A stretch of 64,000 bases of DNA from Escherichia phage vB_EcoM_Kelasse. Under the pieces are notes generated by a model. The model was not told where the DNA came from, did not search any database, and was given only the letters and a program-made list of their open reading frames with translations. The position numbers and the translations under genes were made by a program. Positions 4,764 to 31,251 of this stretch are shown here, in pieces. The stretch's first letter is position 1, and the number at the start of each line of letters is the position of its first letter. The DNA is taken from the sequence record MW749001.1. One strand, 5' to 3'.

Positions 4764-6083
4764 TCACACATAAAACACATCATAACGACCACGTGTTACA
4801 CCAACATAAAGAAGTTGTTGAGCTAATTCAGCATCTGCATAATGAATACAAGGCGTATAAATGAAAGCACGGTCTACAGACATACCCTGAGCTTTATGGA
4901 ATGTTGATGCAGGAAGTGCTTTCACTTTACTAAACTGTGATTTAGCATCCCAAAAATCACTCCACGGAGCTTTTCCGCCTTTGTTCCAATTTTTATAAGT
5001 TTCTGCCGTTTTACCTAAAAACAGGTTAAACTTATATAGCTCTTCATCAGATGAAATTATTTTAATCTTTTCACGATAATATTCATCATCGCCATAAGTT
5101 TCTACTGTTAAATCCCAATGACGAATTAAGTATTCTCCAGGAACACCACGAGCTTTAACAAACGTTGATGTATACTCTGCTTCTATAATACGAACTAATT
5201 GTCCGTTATTAAAAATAATTTCTGACACAGGCTTTCCATCAATTTTATATGTTTTAATTAATGGTTCCTGCATTACAATAATTTCACCAACAATAAAATC
5301 TTTATCAGTTTCAAAAATCTTTTTACGAATAATGCTATTTAACTTGTCAACAGATTTATTCGTAAATGCCATTACGCGATTTTCAAACAAATCATCTAAT
5401 GATTTTACGATTGAAAAATAATTTACCATAAAATCGCGTAAAGCGGTATCACCAGTAAATCCACGTACTCCATGCCCGTCAACAACTTTATCATAAATCC
5501 ACTTACCGTTGCGAACATCAGTAGCTACATCAATAATAGGAGCATTACTGCGTTTAACTTCAGTAAGTTCACACTGATAAAAATCTTTGTGTGTAAAGAA
5601 TGGACTGATATAAGCAGTATTTTCTCCTGGATCAACAGGTCTAATTTGCTTATTATCACCTATTCCAATTATAGTACACCAAGGTGGAATAGTTGAAAGC
5701 AGAATTTTAAATAGCTTTCTATCATACATTGACACTTCGTCGCAGATTAATACCCTGCATTTAGCTAAATCTGGTACTTCCTTCTGTTCAAAAAGAACGT
5801 TTTCTTCATACGTAACTGGGTTAATTTTAAGAATACTGTGAATAGTACTCGCTTCTTTCCCCGACAGTTTTGAAAGAATCTTTTTAGCTGCATGTGTAGG
5901 AGCTGCCAAAATGATACCAGTTTCGCCTGTTGATATTAAAGCTTCAATGATGAACTTAGTAAGAGTAGTCTTACCAGTACCAGCAGGTCCATTAATAGTT
6001 ACATGATGTTTCTTTTCTTTAATAGCCCTCATAACGATGTTAAAGGCATTTTTCTGGCCTTCTGTCAAATCATCAAATGTCAT
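4764..6083 (-). CDS. dda: Dda DNA helicase (SF1B)
   Basis: 439 aa; Walker A GPAGTGKT; sequence recognised as T4 Dda. Confidence 0.95.
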   Translation of the reverse strand: MTFDDLTEGQKNAFNIVMRAIKEKKHHVTINGPAGTGKTTLTKFIIEALISTGETGIILAAPTHAAKKILSKLSGKEASTIHSILKINPVTYEENVLFEQKEVPDLAKCRVLICDEVSMYDRKLFKILLSTIPPWCTIIGIGDNKQIRPVDPGENTAYISPFFTHKDFYQCELTEVKRSNAPIIDVATDVRNGKWIYDKVVDGHGVRGFTGDTALRDFMVNYFSIVKSLDDLFENRVMAFTNKSVDKLNSIIRKKIFETDKDFIVGEIIVMQEPLIKTYKIDGKPVSEIIFNNGQLVRIIEAEYTSTFVKARGVPGEYLIRHWDLTVETYGDDEYYREKIKIISSDEELYKFNLFLGKTAETYKNWNKGGKAPWSDFWDAKSQFSKVKALPASTFHKAQGMSVDRAFIYTPCIHYADAELAQQLLYVGVTRGRYDVFYV

Positions 6084-11129: not shown

Positions 11130-11326
11130 TTTGAATGCTCTATAATTAATTTTAAAGCTTCTTCACTGACAAAAATTTCATCAGGACCTTCTTCTACAAC
11201 CCAATCAACCACACGAAGCTGATTAGATAAGAGCTCACATACGAGCTCCTTGTCATAATTTTTAAATAGCTGGTCAATATGTTTCTTGTGGGCTTTCTTA
11301 AGCTGTCGTTTATTTAAACGAGCCAT
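11126..11326 (-). CDS. hypothetical protein (66 aa)
   Basis: ORF track; between soc and 56. Confidence 0.5.
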   Translation of the reverse strand: MARLNKRQLKKAHKKHIDQLFKNYDKELVCELLSNQLRVVDWVVEEGPDEIFVSEEALKLIIEHSK

Positions 11327-11844
11327 TAGTAACCTCGGTCTTGGCGAGCGAAGTTTTCAGCATTTTTCAGATAATAAAGTTTAAAGATTTCTTCAGCCGT
11401 AAGACCGAGACCTTGGAACATGTTCAGAACGAAATGAAGAATATCAATCATTTCGAATTTAATTTCCAACTGGTCTTGTGGAGACAAATCAGTAATCAGA
11501 GTTTCACGACGTTCACCATGTTGAGCTTTCCATGGCTTCCATACAGCAGATGCATCTTTTTCACCATTGCTCATACCACCAAGAGAAGTCAGAAGTTCGC
11601 GGAATTCATCATCAATATAATCTTTCTGATTGCGCAGCCAATCAACAACTTCACCTGCAGTAGCCAAATCATCAGGATGACGGTTATATTCAGGTTTATC
11701 TTTAGCTAAACGAACCTGCAGAGATTTCTGCATATCAAGCATAACCTGCAGCGGGTCTTTTTCATCACCGAGAATATCCCAGTATTCATTTTGAGCTTTA
11801 TCAGCGCCTTCGATCAGTTGTGAACATTCATTAAAGTAAGCCAT
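11326..11844 (-). CDS. 56: dCTP/dCDP pyrophosphatase gp56
   Basis: 172 aa; recognised as T4 gp56. Confidence 0.9.
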   Translation of the reverse strand: MAYFNECSQLIEGADKAQNEYWDILGDEKDPLQVMLDMQKSLQVRLAKDKPEYNRHPDDLATAGEVVDWLRNQKDYIDDEFRELLTSLGGMSNGEKDASAVWKPWKAQHGERRETLITDLSPQDQLEIKFEMIDILHFVLNMFQGLGLTAEEIFKLYYLKNAENFARQDRGY

Positions 11845-16227: not shown

Positions 16228-16587
16228 TTAAAAGAATTTAAACTTTTTCTTTGACCTTTTATTAAATGCATCTTGTAGTTGCATTGTAATACATTTTTCT
16301 ACATGAGGAGCTAACTCAGCTTTTCTTTCTTGGTCAAGAACAGCAAAGTCCATTACAACCTTTCCATCAACCCAATCCAGTTTAGTTACATACACTATAT
16401 GTGTAGAACCATCTTCTAGTTTAATGACAATCTCCTGGATAACATTTTCCATGGCAGATTTAATTATCTTAAGAGACTCGTTAAAAAGACGTTCTTTTCT
16501 TTCTTCCCCCTCCGAAGAGGGGGATTCATCGATAATTTCTAGATCTAAGTCTAAATCATCTTTATTCATTAAATTCTTCCATATCAC
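16228..16587 (-). CDS. 40: gp40 head vertex assembly protein
   Basis: 119 aa; position between 41 and uvsX. Confidence 0.6.
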   Translation of the reverse strand: MIWKNLMNKDDLDLDLEIIDESPSSEGEERKERLFNESLKIIKSAMENVIQEIVIKLEDGSTHIVYVTKLDWVDGKVVMDFAVLDQERKAELAPHVEKCITMQLQDAFNKRSKKKFKFF

Positions 16588-17743
16588 TTAACTGCTCGAG
16601 GTCAGTTTCTAAATCAGCTGCTGATTTACTTTTACTTTCTGGAGATTTAAATTTTTCAACCTTTGAGTTAATCAATTCATCAACTTCAGCTTCAACAATT
16701 TCATTACTATCAATAGCACCTAACTGATAAGCACGTTTAATAGCATCTCGGAATGGTTGATGCTTAAATAAAGGACCCCAGAATGTAGTGCAGTTGGTAT
16801 CTTTTGCACGCCAAGATTTTTCTTCGCGAATCATCTCGCCAGTTTCTTCGTCAAGAAATTCACGAGCATACCAACCATTCTTAGGTTTTACAACAAATCC
16901 TAATTCTAGAGCCATATCTAACAATCCAGAATAAGGATCGATACCACCGTCAAATTTAACATCAATAAAGAATTTACTTTTTTCTTTAACGGTACGAGAT
17001 TTTTCTACATTTAGAACAAATTGATACCCCTGAAGATCAGAACCATCTTTAATCTGGCGTTTACCGATAATGAATACAGTATCAGCCGAATACATTACGC
17101 CTGTACCACCTGTCATCACGGTTTTACTAAACATTTCAATTGTTTCAATTGTATGGTTAACCGCAACACATGGAATATTTTTAATGCTAAAATAAGGAGT
17201 AACAATACGGAATAATGACTTCAGTGATTTAGCACGAGTCATATCTGCCACAGATTTTTCATTCAAGGCATCTTCCGTTTCTTTCTTAGAAGCCATATTA
17301 CCGATTGAGTCGATGAATACAATAACCTTTTCACCACGCTCAATAGCTTCAAGCTGGTTCACCATATCAATTTTCAGCTGTTCAACTGACTGAATTGGCG
17401 TATGAATTACTCGTTCCGGGTCAACTCCCATGGATCGTAAATAAGCTGGAGTAATACCAAATTCGCTATCATAGAATAGACAAACCGCGTCAGGATATTT
17501 GTTCAAATATGCCGCAACCATAGTCAAAGACATATTTGATTTAAAGTGTTTAGAAGGCCCTGCGAAAATAGTTAAACCAGACTGCATGCCGCCATCAATC
17601 GCACCAGAAATAGCAATATTAAGCATTGGGATTTTTGTACGGATTACATCCTTTTCATTAAAGAATTTAGATGTAGTCAGTTCAGCAGTCATTTTAGAAG
17701 TGGAAGCTTTAATCAAACGGGATTTTAAATCTGCAATAGACAT
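16562..17743 (-). CDS. uvsX: UvsX recombinase (RecA-like)
   Basis: 393 aa; RecA fold with Walker A-like GPSKHFKS. Confidence 0.9.
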   Translation of the reverse strand: MSIADLKSRLIKASTSKMTAELTTSKFFNEKDVIRTKIPMLNIAISGAIDGGMQSGLTIFAGPSKHFKSNMSLTMVAAYLNKYPDAVCLFYDSEFGITPAYLRSMGVDPERVIHTPIQSVEQLKIDMVNQLEAIERGEKVIVFIDSIGNMASKKETEDALNEKSVADMTRAKSLKSLFRIVTPYFSIKNIPCVAVNHTIETIEMFSKTVMTGGTGVMYSADTVFIIGKRQIKDGSDLQGYQFVLNVEKSRTVKEKSKFFIDVKFDGGIDPYSGLLDMALELGFVVKPKNGWYAREFLDEETGEMIREEKSWRAKDTNCTTFWGPLFKHQPFRDAIKRAYQLGAIDSNEIVEAEVDELINSKVEKFKSPESKSKSAADLETDLEQLSDMEEFNE

Positions 17744-17820
17744 TCATTTTTTCCATAGGCATCATTATATTTTCCTCACTGGTTAAAGATAGAGTAATTA
17801 TAACACAATAAATTTAGGCA

Positions 17821-18669
17821 TTAATCAACTGCTATTGGATGAATAGCATTAAACTTATGAAATGCTTCTGATTTTTCTTTACGCGAAACACACATGCGAA
17901 GAACCTTTAATGGCTCGTCTTCTTCACCCAACGATTTTCGTTTTTCAATATTCGATGTTTTCCAACGAGCTTGCTCTGGAAACTCTCTATTGATTTGCTC
18001 AAGCGCTCTATTATGTTTAGAATTACTGCGAATTGAACTACACCCGCCAGGAGCTTGTGCTTTTCCAGATACAACCAGATATTTGAACAGGGCTAAATGC
18101 GGATAACCTTGATTAATTAAATTGAGAAATGCATACATATCTTCGCATAAATCAATTTTTCCATACCCAATTTGTTCTGTCGTAAGTTTTCCGAGGTCAT
18201 ACCATGTATTCGTGAATCCATATGAATTTTCACGATAATTACCCCAAGATGAAGTAATTTTAAAAATAGGTAGACGAGCATGGCCATGATAATACCCGCA
18301 ATCCATGGCATCCTCAACATATTGAATCAATTCATAGAACTGTTCACGAGTCAATTGATTGACTTTATCTACGCAACGACGATCATCTCTTTTTCGCATT
18401 GAACTCATACGAATAGTAGTATCATCGTCAATCATCCAGATTCGTTGACCTGCATACATATCGGTAATTGCTTTACGAGTACCGGCAATTCCGTTTACAT
18501 CATCAGGAATAGTTATAATTTTAGCTCTAGACCCATAAGCGTCATGATAAGCTTTTTCTTCATGTTCACGCACTACAATATGGGGTTCATAATCAGTCGG
18601 AAACATATCAAGGGCAGAAACTGCCCCGACACGCTGATAACTTGGAATTACGAATTGAATCATTTCCAC
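17821..18669 (-). CDS. DxD glycosyltransferase (GT-A like), probable beta-alpha-glucosyltransferase
   Basis: 282 aa; WMIDDD motif; sits at T4 segA/beta-gt position but is not T4 beta-gt. Confidence 0.55.
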   Translation of the reverse strand: MEMIQFVIPSYQRVGAVSALDMFPTDYEPHIVVREHEEKAYHDAYGSRAKIITIPDDVNGIAGTRKAITDMYAGQRIWMIDDDTTIRMSSMRKRDDRRCVDKVNQLTREQFYELIQYVEDAMDCGYYHGHARLPIFKITSSWGNYRENSYGFTNTWYDLGKLTTEQIGYGKIDLCEDMYAFLNLINQGYPHLALFKYLVVSGKAQAPGGCSSIRSNSKHNRALEQINREFPEQARWKTSNIEKRKSLGEEDEPLKVLRMCVSRKEKSEAFHKFNAIHPIAVD

Positions 18670-19400
18670 TCACCTTTATAGTCTTTTTTCACAATATGAG
18701 TTTCGCCAGTATTCCACCAATGATCAACCAAGTAAAAATGACGAGAATATACATGAAGACTTCCGACATTCCATATAATAGAACCCGCTTTATACTGACG
18801 AGTTGAATCGCCTGCATTCAAATCAGATACTAATTTATCTAATACGTATTTTTGCCATGCATAATCATTACGGAATCCGAAGACCACGTCATTTGAGCGC
18901 ATGCTTACTACTGCATTGACTTTCTTATCACGAATCAGGTACTGTACTGTATTAGTACACATGAAATCTGACATACCATCTTTATTGTAGTCAAATTGCA
19001 TGGATGGACGAGTATAAATCATGATACCACGTCGAGAATCAGGATTTTGACCAAGTTCAGCTAAACACATATCATACTGGGCATAGTTATCTTCTGACCA
19101 AATAGCCCAACCATAATTCGAGTTAATTTCGCCTTTAGAAGATGCTACCTGCTGCCAAATCTTTGGTGTTTCGCCTGGAATATCTTTAACAAACAAGCTC
19201 TTAGATTTATACCATTCAAGTTCACGCTGAATGTATTCATCATTAAGAGCGCCAAAAATAAAGGGTTCATCTGCTACAAATGATGCGCCAATAATTTCAA
19301 TAGTTTTAACGCCAGTTTTATCAACTACGAAATCTTTTTCCTTTAATGCAGTTCCCAAATAAAAACGGATTTCTTCAACTGTCATAGAGTCATTAATCAT
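18660..19400 (-). CDS. 42: dCMP hydroxymethylase gp42
   Basis: 246 aa; recognised as T4 gp42. Confidence 0.92.
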   Translation of the reverse strand: MINDSMTVEEIRFYLGTALKEKDFVVDKTGVKTIEIIGASFVADEPFIFGALNDEYIQRELEWYKSKSLFVKDIPGETPKIWQQVASSKGEINSNYGWAIWSEDNYAQYDMCLAELGQNPDSRRGIMIYTRPSMQFDYNKDGMSDFMCTNTVQYLIRDKKVNAVVSMRSNDVVFGFRNDYAWQKYVLDKLVSDLNAGDSTRQYKAGSIIWNVGSLHVYSRHFYLVDHWWNTGETHIVKKDYKGEWK

Positions 19401-19407
19401 TTAAACC

Positions 19408-19557
19408 TCAATTGATACATTCATATTTAACTTGTAACAGTAATAAACCCCAACCTAAAATAATAGTCGGAATCATAAGAGGAACCGTTACACTATAGTA
19501 TATACTTATTATAATCATCAAGATTAAAAGCAACACTTCTATAATTTTGCTTTTCAT
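19408..19557 (-). CDS. small hydrophobic peptide (49 aa)
   Basis: Hand-translated MKSKIIEVLLLILMIIISIYYSV...; ATGA overlap with imm stop. Confidence 0.4.
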   Translation of the reverse strand: MKSKIIEVLLLILMIIISIYYSVTVPLMIPTIILGWGLLLLQVKYECIN

Positions 19558-20203: not shown

Positions 20204-20452
20204 TCAAATGCAAGTAGTAATTACTCCAGTAGTGCTTATGCAGGTATTACCCATTTGCACACCTAAAGATCCATTTGTATTCACATGAAGATTATCATCA
20301 ATTTTAACTGATATTTTACCATTAGTGTGAATAACGGTGCTAGATTCAATCACAGGTTGAGTATCATTTTCAACACTAACAAATGGAACTGCTGCTAATG
20401 CAACTAAACAAACTGCTAAGCATCCCATAACAATTTTCATTTTATTCTCCAA
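20204..20452 (-). CDS. small secreted protein (true start probably ATG near 20440)
   Basis: Signal peptide MKIVMGCLAVCLVALAA; leader TTGGAGAATAAAATG shared with two other genes. Confidence 0.5.
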   Translation of the reverse strand: MENKMKIVMGCLAVCLVALAAVPFVSVENDTQPVIESSTVIHTNGKISVKIDDNLHVNTNGSLGVQMGNTCISTTGVITTCI

Positions 20453-20620: not shown

Positions 20621-23317
20621 TCAGCCAAACAGGAAGTCTAACGAAGCTTTTTCTTCATAGTCCATACCAGCCGATTCACACATGCCTGCAAGCGGTTTAA
20701 CAAACGATTTTTGGAACAAAGTTGAGTAGTCAATCCAAGATAGTACATCAGAACGAATTTCTTTTGGAAGTTCTGTACCCGACGGCCAAGCAATGCACTT
20801 GTCGCCAAATGGATTTCCTTCACGTAATGGAAGAACCATTACCTTATTTCCATCCAAAATTGGAGCTACACCCAGACCACTAACAGCTCGACGATAAGTT
20901 AGCACACCACGAATATGGAACGGGCATTTAAATCCTGGCCAACCTTTATCATCATATTTCGCTATATCGTTCGCAGTTTTTACTTCAGCAATAACTTTAT
21001 AGTCAAGTTGACGATATTCTTTCTCGAAGTTCTTGTAATATTCTTGGACAGACTCTTCACCTTCCTGAAGAATACGACGAATACTTTCTTCAAGAGCTTC
21101 TTGAACTGCTTTAGGCGTTGAACTTTGCTGAGTTTCCATACCCATGATTTTTAGATGCGGTTCAGCAAAACGCTTATCTTCCATATCATATACGTTCAGA
21201 GCATAACGCTTTTTCGCTTTCCAAAATCCACCAACGCCCTTTGAACCAAGTGGAGGGCAAGAAATAGCTTCACGGTCCATATGCATCAGATGCTCGCGGT
21301 TATTCATATAATCACATAACTCACGATATGCAACATCAATCATAGGTTCCATCTTTTTCTTACCGAACTGATTCATGAATTCAACTAAATCGTTCTGCTC
21401 TTTGAATCGGTCAAGACCAACTTTTTCAATAACTTTATCTACACAAACATATACCGAATCAGTATCACCTGCTGCAATGAAATCTTCGCCATTAGTTCCG
21501 CACACTTTATTCAGATACTCATTAATTTTACGAGCAATCCACTGAATACCAACTTGGCCGAAAATTGTGATAGCAGTAGCATTTCGCAAATCATAGTAAC
21601 GGAAATGAATATTACCAAGAGCACCGTAAAGGCTGTTAATAAGAATTTTACGGTTCAGCTGATTTGTATTAGCAAGTGTAGCCGCTTTTTCACATTCTTC
21701 AATCAAACTATTGAGAACAGATTCAGTATAATTCGATAGTTCATTTAAGAAATCATCACTGAACTTAACATATCGTTCAACTTCAGGTTTAGTTGAACAA
21801 GACCCTGCGCCTTTCATAATAATCTTTTTAATAGCTTCGGCATTCATTTCTTCAGCGAACATTTTCTTTTTCCAATCTTTACGCTGGAAAAATACTTTAG
21901 CGATTTCCTTTGGAATGATACCTTCTTGATGCTTATCATACATCCATCCATTCGGAGAACAAGAATATTCATCACTCGGTTTAGGAGCTGTTCCTGCGAT
22001 ATATTCATGAATTGGATGAACTTTAAACTGCCCACGAATAGTCTCAGGACTAATGTTAACCTGACGAATAATGCTCGGATACAGAGACGTCAAGTCAAAA
22101 CTCATAATATATCGACGAGCAATTGGTTTAGGTTCAAACACAAATGCACCCGGAAAACTCTGTTTAACATGCGAACCTTGTTGAGGAATAACCTTATGTT
22201 CACCTTTCAATGAGTTAAAAATAATAGCATCCCAGGTTTTAATAGGACTCATTACACCGGAAAAAGGCATTTTAGCGTAATAAGACATACTTAAAACTAG
22301 ATCGATAAACCCGCGAATTTTATCAATTGCTTGAACTGATTCTACGTCAATGATGTTATAACTAATGTATCGTTGATGATTAGTCTCACGAAGTTTATTA
22401 ATAGGACCGTCGTATGGTAATTTACCTTTTTTGGTTTCATGTTGAGCAACTGATTCCAAAGAGAATGACGGCAAATTAGTAAAAGCGAATTTCTTGTACA
22501 AATCTAAATAATCAAGAATAGATACGCCATCAATAGAATAAATTTCTTTGCTACCGTACATATTTTGAATTAATTTAGATTTTACTCGACCGATTGGAGA
22601 GAAGCGTTTCATACTACGTTCACCGAGAACCATTTTAACGCGATTCATGATATACGGAACGTCAAATCCCTCAATATTCCAACCGGTAAAAATAGCAGGT
22701 CGTTTCTGTTCCCAAAGATTAATATATTCCATGAGCATATCACGCTCATTATCGAATGGCATATAAATTACTCGGTCAAGAATTTCTTGAGGAACTTCAT
22801 CACCACCTTCACAGTCAAGCTTAGCAGCTAACTTTGCATCCCATTTTGATACTGAACCATACATTGAATTCAAAAGGTCGAAAACATAAAAACGATCATC
22901 AATTGAATCGTAATGAGTGATAGCATCAATTTCATATTCAGCTTTCATTGGGTCAGGAAATTTATCACCAGTAACCTCAATGTCACAGTTAGCTACACGA
23001 ACAAATTTTCGGTCATAAACAATTTCTGAACCGTATGTATCACTGATATAAGCGAGTTTAAAATCGTTCATACCGAGAGCTTCGAGACCGATGTCTTCCA
23101 TTCGTTTCATCCAATCTCGAGCATCTTTCATTGATGGAAATTTTTGAGGAGCGCAATTTTTACCATAGATGTCTTTGTACTTTGACTCTTCCTTACAATG
23201 CCTAAACATAGTCGGAAGATATTCTACTTCACGAGTACGTTCCTTTCCGTTTTCATCAATATAACGTTCAACAATGTTATTTCCGACTGTTTCGATAGAG
23301 ATATAAAATTCTTTCAT
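20621..23317 (-). CDS. 43: DNA polymerase gp43 (family B)
   Basis: 898 aa; recognised as T4 gp43. Confidence 0.95.
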   Translation of the reverse strand: MKEFYISIETVGNNIVERYIDENGKERTREVEYLPTMFRHCKEESKYKDIYGKNCAPQKFPSMKDARDWMKRMEDIGLEALGMNDFKLAYISDTYGSEIVYDRKFVRVANCDIEVTGDKFPDPMKAEYEIDAITHYDSIDDRFYVFDLLNSMYGSVSKWDAKLAAKLDCEGGDEVPQEILDRVIYMPFDNERDMLMEYINLWEQKRPAIFTGWNIEGFDVPYIMNRVKMVLGERSMKRFSPIGRVKSKLIQNMYGSKEIYSIDGVSILDYLDLYKKFAFTNLPSFSLESVAQHETKKGKLPYDGPINKLRETNHQRYISYNIIDVESVQAIDKIRGFIDLVLSMSYYAKMPFSGVMSPIKTWDAIIFNSLKGEHKVIPQQGSHVKQSFPGAFVFEPKPIARRYIMSFDLTSLYPSIIRQVNISPETIRGQFKVHPIHEYIAGTAPKPSDEYSCSPNGWMYDKHQEGIIPKEIAKVFFQRKDWKKKMFAEEMNAEAIKKIIMKGAGSCSTKPEVERYVKFSDDFLNELSNYTESVLNSLIEECEKAATLANTNQLNRKILINSLYGALGNIHFRYYDLRNATAITIFGQVGIQWIARKINEYLNKVCGTNGEDFIAAGDTDSVYVCVDKVIEKVGLDRFKEQNDLVEFMNQFGKKKMEPMIDVAYRELCDYMNNREHLMHMDREAISCPPLGSKGVGGFWKAKKRYALNVYDMEDKRFAEPHLKIMGMETQQSSTPKAVQEALEESIRRILQEGEESVQEYYKNFEKEYRQLDYKVIAEVKTANDIAKYDDKGWPGFKCPFHIRGVLTYRRAVSGLGVAPILDGNKVMVLPLREGNPFGDKCIAWPSGTELPKEIRSDVLSWIDYSTLFQKSFVKPLAGMCESAGMDYEEKASLDFLFG

Positions 23318-30029: not shown

Positions 30030-30050
30030 GCTAAAGGGCCGAAGCCCTTT
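30030..30050 (-). terminator. C(UUCG)G tetraloop hairpin downstream of alpha-gt
   Basis: AAGGGC-UUCG-GCCCUU. Confidence 0.5.
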
Positions 30051-31251
30051 ATTTTGTAATAATGTCAAATTGCTCTTTAAAGCAGAAGCTTGAATCTTGA
30101 TGCTGATACAAAAATTCATACGCTTTTTCTCGCTCACGGTCATAAAGAGCTCGGTCAGATGACAGTTCTTTAATACGCTCGAATGTTGATTCCATATCAT
30201 TTTCATCAAACCAAATGATACCGCTATCATGCGAAATTAGCGGAGTATTATCAACACGGAATTTTAAATTTTCGCCAGTAGATTTCCAAAATACCGGAAT
30301 TGTTCCACATGCACCAAGCTCGAGATGAGTATATTCTAAAGAACGTTGTAGATATTTTTTATCCAACTTACTCAACTGATAACCAAAACCGGATTTACTC
30401 ATACGTTCAAGCATTTCGCTATTTACATAACGGTCAAGAATTTGCGTTGGCAAATTAGGAGCAATTTTAATTTGGTCTACTTGATGAAGACGATAATACT
30501 CGTATGGAATTCCTTTTTCTTTAATAGGAATGAACGCTGGAGAACGTTCCAGACCTTCCATAATAGTACTTAGTCCTGCAGGTTTAAGATGTTTTTCATG
30601 AAAATCAAACATCTGATAAAAACCTTTCCATGTAGTCGTACGACCAATCCAACGGTTGATATTCATGTTAATTTCAGAAACATCTTTCCAGTAAGTTGAC
30701 CGAACCTTCGCAATATCCATAGGAGGCTGAAAGTTATATACTGTCGGTGCTTCTTCAATATCATCAAACAGAGAAACAGTTTCTGGATACCATTCTTTCA
30801 TCAGAACTTTATTAAAATCACCATTATCAGAATGGCTAAAAATAACATCAGCTCGACGAACAGTTTCTTCTAATCCCAAATTTCGACGCAAAGAAAGAGA
30901 AGAATGGTCATGCTGATAAACTACAACACGAACCGAAGGTTTAATGTTATCAATAATTTTTTTATAGTTATTAATAGTGTCTTCTTCAACCGAAGTAGCA
31001 GGAACTGAATTGATAATTAGAATATCACAATCATTTACCAGCTTAAGTGTTTTATCATATTCTTTTGCCAATAAAACCGGAATTGAAAATGATTTATAAT
31101 CATGCGCGCAATTACGAGTAAATGATTTATCTTTAGCATAAACCAAAGTTACTTCATGACCATTTTTAATAAACCAATCACGTTGCTCGAGTGAGAATTT
31201 TGTTACACCACAACCTTCAAGACCTCGAGCCATAAAAATACATACTTTCAT
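30049..31251 (-). CDS. a-gt: alpha-glucosyltransferase (hydroxymethylcytosine)
   Basis: 400 aa; recognised as close to T4 alpha-gt. Confidence 0.9.
   Translation of the reverse strand: MKVCIFMARGLEGCGVTKFSLEQRDWFIKNGHEVTLVYAKDKSFTRNCAHDYKSFSIPVLLAKEYDKTLKLVNDCDILIINSVPATSVEEDTINNYKKIIDNIKPSVRVVVYQHDHSSLSLRRNLGLEETVRRADVIFSHSDNGDFNKVLMKEWYPETVSLFDDIEEAPTVYNFQPPMDIAKVRSTYWKDVSEINMNINRWIGRTTTWKGFYQMFDFHEKHLKPAGLSTIMEGLERSPAFIPIKEKGIPYEYYRLHQVDQIKIAPNLPTQILDRYVNSEMLERMSKSGFGYQLSKLDKKYLQRSLEYTHLELGACGTIPVFWKSTGENLKFRVDNTPLISHDSGIIWFDENDMESTFERIKELSSDRALYDREREKAYEFLYQHQDSSFCFKEQFDIITK

Follow-up and report, generated by a model that had tools for sequence, protein, structure and literature searches.

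Which enzyme occupies the place between gene 42 and uvsX in Escherichia phage vB_EcoM_Kelasse (MW749001.1), where T4 carries segA and its beta-glucosyltransferase gene (beta-gt), and what would it do to the phage DNA? We analysed a stretch of 64,000 nucleotides of this record (the window). A sequence-only reading had placed a DxD glycosyltransferase there instead of beta-gt, had compared it with the T2/T6 enzyme that adds a second glucose, and had drawn from this that the virion DNA contains gentiobiosyl-hydroxymethylcytosine. We conclude with high confidence that the gene is the Tequatrovirus beta-glucosyl-HMC-alpha-glucosyltransferase (ba-gt, also called ggt or TAGT), which adds a second glucose to alpha-glucosyl-hydroxymethylcytosine (alpha-glucosyl-hmC). 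Earlier publications already describe the enzyme, the place of its gene between gene 42 and uvsX, its fold class and how widespread it is. For the window gene, orthology, family, fold, motif conservation, synteny and pathway completeness were established here; the reaction and the genetics are taken from the literature, and we infer the roles of the catalytic residues, the coupling to gene 42 and the expected amount of the modification.

The locus between gene 42 and uvsX

The window comes from a Tequatrovirus, a T4-like coliphage (T2/T6-like), and the 20 kb around ba-gt share 98% identity with many Tequatrovirus phages, e.g. Shigella phage KRT47 and the BASEL phages. The order on the minus strand is gene 43 (20621-23317), small membrane-protein ORFs including imm, gene 42 (18660-19400), ba-gt, a spacer, uvsX (16562-17743), gene 40 and gene 41. 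Gene 42 encodes dCMP hydroxymethylase and matches the Pfam domain Thymidylat_synt (thymidylate-synthase family); RefSeq names gp42 ‘thymidylate synthase’. Two small hydrophobic ORFs are also found on this strand. The first (49 aa, 19408-19557), found between gene 42 and imm, has an annotation in JY01, CP and EL, whereas the T4, T2 and T6 records show an unannotated gap of 153 nt in its place. The second (82 aa, 20204-20452), with a signal-peptide-like N-terminus, lies between imm.1 and gene 43; it is RB51ORF048 in the T2 annotation and is left out of the T6 record MH550421.

Concerning the gene itself, the ORF list of the window contains a minus-strand ORF at 17821-18669, which encodes 282 aa when begun at GTG 18669. 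This is the length that had been reported before, and the ORF exists at that length, but a start at the in-frame ATG at 18663, two codons downstream, is more likely; the CDS then covers 17821-18663 (minus strand) and encodes 280 aa plus the stop. This ATG overlaps the stop codon of gene 42 as ATGA, is preceded by a Shine-Dalgarno-like stretch (AAAGGTGAG), and is equivalent to the start of the 843-nt CDS (280 aa) annotated in relatives. The reading frame between gene 42 and uvsX is intact. Transcription runs from gene 42 through ba-gt to uvsX, and ba-gt is thus downstream of gene 42 and upstream of uvsX. The description of uvsX as followed by this ORF is correct as to adjacency (the two are 77 bp apart), but as to order it is true in plus-strand coordinates only, the gene being on the minus strand; similarly, the span 17744-18669 assigned to the feature is coding from 17821 onward, but its first part, 17744-17820, is intergenic. 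A G+C-rich hairpin (GGGGCAG-TTT-CTGCCCT, 18611-18627, minus strand) falls within codons 13-18 of ba-gt, some 40 nt past the presumably coupled start; it is terminator-like by scan and is conserved in T2 and T6.

The spacer between ba-gt and uvsX (77 bp, 17744-17820, minus strand) is non-coding. Reading the minus strand at 17797-17823 gives an extended -10 (TGTTATAAT, with TATAAT at 17802-17797) and, 11 nt upstream of it, a TGCCTAA element (17820-17814; TAATGCCTAA), with no -35 hexamer. Judged by their letters, these elements resemble a T4 MotA-type middle promoter for uvsX. A sigma-70 scan of the minus strand of the spacer returned no -35/-10 pair, and the count from the sigma-70 promoter and terminator scan was not above that in shuffled sequence and is uninformative as to regulation.

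The window and T4 are homologous without a break through uvsX to 17731, and again from 18678 in gene 42; the segment with segA and beta-gt measures 1942 bp in T4 versus 946 bp for the ba-gt segment in the window. When the T4 proteins were compared with the whole 64-kb window by tblastn, beta-gt had no match and SegA gave noise only (E >= 1.6). T4 has segA beside beta-gt, whereas no GIY-YIG ORF adjoins uvsX in the window, where the gap between ba-gt and uvsX is only 77 bp; the absence of a GIY-YIG segA had been read correctly.

The word ‘instead’ in the earlier description needs a qualification: the slot does hold ba-gt, but most of the genus has this arrangement and T4 belongs to a rare minority. 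A megablast search with the ba-gt span found 478 phage records at >90% DNA identity, of which 474 cover most of the query; nearly all have 95-99% identity and many are annotated as this enzyme. The T4 beta-gt is found in 29 phage records. These counts (478 versus 29) agree with the published rarity of the T4 pair: in a survey of 753 phage genomes, alpha-gt or beta-gt together with a TAGT was the common arrangement, and the T4 alpha+beta pair was present in only 6 genomes (PMC13216743). The names given to these genes in the databases vary. The T4-type beta-gt of RB55 and RB59 is mislabelled ‘beta-glucosyl-HMC-alpha-glucosyl-transferase’, while true ba-gt is often labelled ‘b-gt’, ‘putative beta-glucosyltransferase’ or ‘hypothetical protein’. 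In the T2 record AP018813 the product names are clearly shifted, e.g. ‘major capsid protein’ stands on the gene 41 helicase.

Identity, family and fold of the protein

The alignment to the T2/T6 enzyme that had been proposed as a check is full-length with 99% identity. Directly aligned, the window protein and the T2 protein are identical at 277 of 280 residues (T2 differs by R11H, H40Y and P251S), and the identity to both deposited T6 records is 99% over the aligned residues (H40N, D55G and R106H, with an additional lesion particular to the stock behind each deposited genome). The His40 of the window copy is unusual, most relatives having Tyr and T6 having Asn; residue 40 is a variable position on a surface helix in the model. 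The protein matches PHROG 842, ‘beta-glucosyl-HMC-alpha-glucosyltransferase’, over its whole length (3e-89), and its residues 5-209 match positions 2-205 of the 205-position Pfam TAGT profile (PF20691; 41.3 bits versus a gathering cut-off of 27.5). Together with the T2 and T6 alignments, these matches uphold the assignment to the T2/T6 type of beta-alpha-glucosyltransferase. The window gene shares with the T2/T6 genes the length of 280 aa, the position between gene 42 and uvsX, the ATGA overlap and the alpha-gt partner, with only point differences. Concerning T4 beta-gt, the best BLASTP hit to ba-gt has E = 2.2 and there is no match to Pfam PF09198, as the dissimilarity noted from the sequence had suggested; on the BLASTP result a T4-type beta-gt identity was rejected.

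A HMMER search through 1.8 billion representative proteins yielded 332 homologues (E <= 0.001), and a family alignment was built from 74 full-length relatives with identity down to 19%. In this alignment R11, D80, D175 and G207 are invariant, and I6, P7, R63, D79, D81, G186, G206, R212 and P229 are conserved in at least 90% of the sequences. The window protein and the Pfam TAGT profile have R11, R63, DDD79-81, D175 and G206-G207 in common. The WMIDDD motif singled out before is real: this DxD-type acidic motif occupies residues 76-81 (18421-18438, minus strand) after a predicted strand (74-78), and it holds the invariant D80 and the highly conserved D79 and D81. Three other motifs, all on the minus strand, are IPSYQR (residues 6-11, 18631-18648), which contains Arg11 and forms the loop after strand beta-1 in the GT-A nucleotide-binding half; CEDM (residues 173-176, 18136-18147), which contains Asp175 at the start of a helix (174-184) in the model; and PGGCSSIR (residues 205-212, 18028-18051), a conserved glycine-rich loop.

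Evidence for the fold comes from the model only, because no member of the family has a solved structure. AlphaFold2, run on the 74-sequence alignment, gave a single alpha/beta domain (pLDDT 93.2, pTM 0.91). Searched against the PDB with Foldseek, the model resembles TarS, TarP, K4CP, WrtF and AvpGT (E about 1e-6, probability 1.00), and most of its nearest structural neighbours are inverting GT-A glycosyltransferases, including several GT2 enzymes; the predicted Rossmann-like domain is in line with the GT-A class first read from the motif. A published AlphaFold3 model of the T6 TAGT is also GT-A, sister to GT2 (PMC13216743). By sequence, a PDB search with ba-gt alone found no meaningful match, and a PDB search with the 74-sequence profile found de novo TIM barrels and polycystin as its best hits (E > 0.001). 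By analogy with GT-A enzymes and from its place in the model, the DDD of residues 79-81 would bind the metal and the UDP diphosphate, and the invariant Asp175 is probably the catalytic base of an inverting enzyme, acting on the 6-OH of the acceptor. An inverting mechanism would fit the step from UDP-alpha-glucose to a beta-1,6 linkage.

The same fold matches raise the idea that ba-gt acts on a substrate other than DNA, e.g. a host envelope polymer, as the nearest solved folds (TarS, TarP, K4CP and WrtF) are GT2 enzymes of wall teichoic acid or polysaccharide. However, TarS, TarP, K4CP, RmlT and WrtF, which are inverting GT-A enzymes (several GT2) with teichoic acid or polysaccharide substrates, share only 8-15% identity with ba-gt, which speaks for the fold and says nothing of the substrate; ba-gt is 99% identical to the T6 DNA enzyme, whose role was established genetically, and the gene, probably coupled to gene 42, lies within a DNA-metabolism cluster. 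We regard an envelope substrate as extremely improbable.

The proposed route and the acceptor

The partner required for a second glucose had been reported as present, and alpha-gt is indeed found at 30049-31251 (minus strand, 400 aa, Pfam AGT E = 1e-236). At the position of gene 56 (dCTPase/dUTPase) there is an ORF (11326-11844, minus strand) in which Pfam dUTPase_2 matches the C-terminal 33 residues only; the syntenic CDS of phage CP is annotated as dCTP pyrophosphatase, and by synteny we assign the ORF as the dCTPase. Gene 56 keeps unmodified dC out of phage DNA.

In the proposed route, gp42 would make hm-dCMP and the replisome would incorporate hmC. The alpha-gt product would then add an alpha-linked glucose to hmC in duplex DNA, creating the acceptor for ba-gt, and ba-gt would add a second glucose from host UDP-glucose, beta-1,6 onto the first, to give alpha-gentiobiosyl-hmC as in the related phages. 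Its gene is probably transcribed together with gene 42 and coupled to it in translation. This is the published route of T2 and T6, which have no beta-gt and in which ba-gt adds a beta-1,6 glucose to alpha-glucosyl-hmC, giving gentiobiosyl-hmC (PMC6024577, PMC11078745); T6 without ba-gt has only alpha-glucosyl-hmC (PMC11078745; bioRxiv 10.64898/2026.02.25.707755).

T4 beta-gt and the window enzyme stand at one genomic position, and both modify DNA by forming a beta linkage with UDP-glucose as donor. They differ in fold, T4 beta-gt being GT-B (PF09198) and ba-gt GT-A (PMC13216743), with no sequence similarity, and in acceptor, which is bare hmC for T4 beta-gt versus alpha-glucosyl-hmC for ba-gt. 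For many TAGTs, which go with TET/JBP oxygenases, the presumed substrate is 5hmC formed within the DNA (PMC13216743, PMC13390438); in the window phage, by contrast, gp42 supplies hmC as a nucleotide, and the acceptor would be a sugar that the base already carries.

The acceptor is the point on which another reading turns, namely that ba-gt glycosylates bare hmC directly, as a functional substitute for T4 beta-gt, and that no second sugar is added. The protein is a Pfam TAGT member in the beta-gt slot, and in many phages a TAGT occurs with neither alpha-gt nor beta-gt (PMC13216743). However, in a T6 delta-ba-gt mutant about 75% alpha-glucosyl-hmC is still present and the gentiobiosyl form alone is lost (PMC11078745), and about 25-33% of the hmC carries no sugar in T2, in T6 and in the Durham phages although they have the enzyme, with beta-glucosyl-hmC undetected (PMC13390438). 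Direct glycosylation of bare hmC is accordingly very unlikely in our view, if not quite as improbable as an envelope substrate. The readings as a non-DNA glycosyltransferase and as a primary hmC glycosyltransferase were both rejected, and addition of a second glucose to alpha-glucosyl-hmC is the preferred reading.

Arg11, alleles and the expected gentiobiosyl fraction

The amount of gentiobiosyl-hmC is not set by the presence of the gene, because T2 has a 99%-identical ba-gt and only ~5% of the gentiobiosyl form. The published fraction is ~5% for T2 as against ~72% for T6 (PMC6024577, PMC11078745). In ten Durham Tequatroviruses that have alpha-gt and, in the syntenic place of T4 beta-gt, a TAGT, LC-MS detected hmC, alpha-glucosyl-hmC and alpha-gentiobiosyl-hmC (PMC13390438), and Tequatroviruses with this pair had 40-67% gentiobiosyl-hmC by LC-MS, with beta-glucosyl-hmC not found (PMC13390438).

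The alpha-gt of the window differs from that of T2 by 3 residues, from that of phage CP by 2, from that of T6 by 34 and from that of EL by 33. The genus has two alpha-gt alleles, the T2/CP/window type and the T6/EL type, which are ~33 residues apart, with differences clustered at residues 47-118 and 221-298. The gentiobiosyl fraction does not track the allele type. Among phages with the T2 type, CP (OZ034683; ba-gt V30A and H40Y relative to the window) has about two-thirds gentiobiosyl-hmC and T2 (ba-gt R11H, H40Y and P251S) about 5%; among those with the T6 type, T6 (Arg11 retained in ba-gt) has about 72% and EL (OZ034682; 8 substitutions in ba-gt) about 40%. T2 and CP thus have near-identical alpha-gt, and their ba-gt differs at residues 11 and 251, plus V30A in CP.

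These comparisons bear on a less favourable expectation for the window phage, in which ba-gt is present but weak as in T2, so that the virion DNA would contain mono-alpha-glucosyl-hmC and free hmC with a few percent of the gentiobiosyl form at most. T2 itself, with its 99%-identical gene and about 5% gentiobiosyl-hmC (PMC6024577, PMC11078745), shows that such a state occurs, and the window alpha-gt is of the T2 type with 3 differences. Nevertheless, the window ba-gt has neither of the T2-specific substitutions, P251S and R11H, of which R11H alters a family-invariant residue, and CP, which combines a T2-type alpha-gt with an Arg11 ba-gt, reaches about two-thirds gentiobiosyl-hmC (PMC13390438). 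We consider a T2-like weak enzyme unlikely, though the least improbable of the three alternatives to the preferred reading.

The window retains Arg11. As the IMG/VR scan returned 5 loci only, too few for allele frequencies, a 30-nt megablast probe across codon 11 was used; it samples the 130 records, out of 478, that share the downstream 28-mer. A His codon is found in 8 of the 130 probed records, all of them T2 records or the T2-identical SV76. In the T2 genomes the His11 alleles are those of AP018813 (4283-5125 in our extracted locus L003) and MH751506 (3286-4128 in L006), and the equivalent codon of the window is at 18631-18633. Reading the alleles side by side, it is plausible, as a hypothesis, that R11H is a hypomorphic lesion causing the low gentiobiose of T2. 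The difference in gentiobiose between T2 and T6 is 60 years old, and R11H as its basis was not found stated in the publications consulted. The stronger proposal, that this single ba-gt substitution accounts for the T2/T6 gap and that the window allele is fully active, with mostly gentiobiosylated DNA, is one that we put forward tentatively, giving it slightly less than an even chance.

Both deposited T6 genomes carry ba-gt lesions, and these are different in each. In MH550421 (locus L002, ~4951-4953, minus strand) codon 10 is an amber TAG, where the window (CAG) and T2 (CAA) both encode Gln, and the CDS is annotated only from Met20. In AP018814 (locus L005, 3135-3974) one Asp of WMIDDD is lost in frame (WMI-DD), leaving 279 aa. 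Two independent lesions suggest that ba-gt is dispensable, or even counter-selected, in routine laboratory propagation.

By analogy with its characterised relatives, the window phage is expected to contain hmC, alpha-glucosyl-hmC and alpha-gentiobiosyl-hmC, and no beta-glucosyl-hmC. A high gentiobiosyl fraction, like that of T6 and CP, would be expected because Arg11 is kept and both transferases are near-identical to those of CP. A mildly useful by-product of the comparison is R11H as a testable candidate cause of the low gentiobiose of T2. For the phage, the second sugar would shift which host defences can act, e.g. by masking alpha-glucosyl-hmC from the Brig1 glycosylase. Publications on related phages indicate that the alpha-glucosyl intermediate is the target of Brig1, that DNA with the gentiobiosyl form withstands both Brig1 and the BapA glucosidase in vitro, and that GmrSD-type enzymes can still cut such DNA; T6 without ba-gt is more Brig1-sensitive and its DNA becomes a substrate of BapA (PMC11078745; bioRxiv 10.64898/2026.02.25.707755). 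The modification profile expected for the window phage would in this way predict its response to modification-dependent defences.
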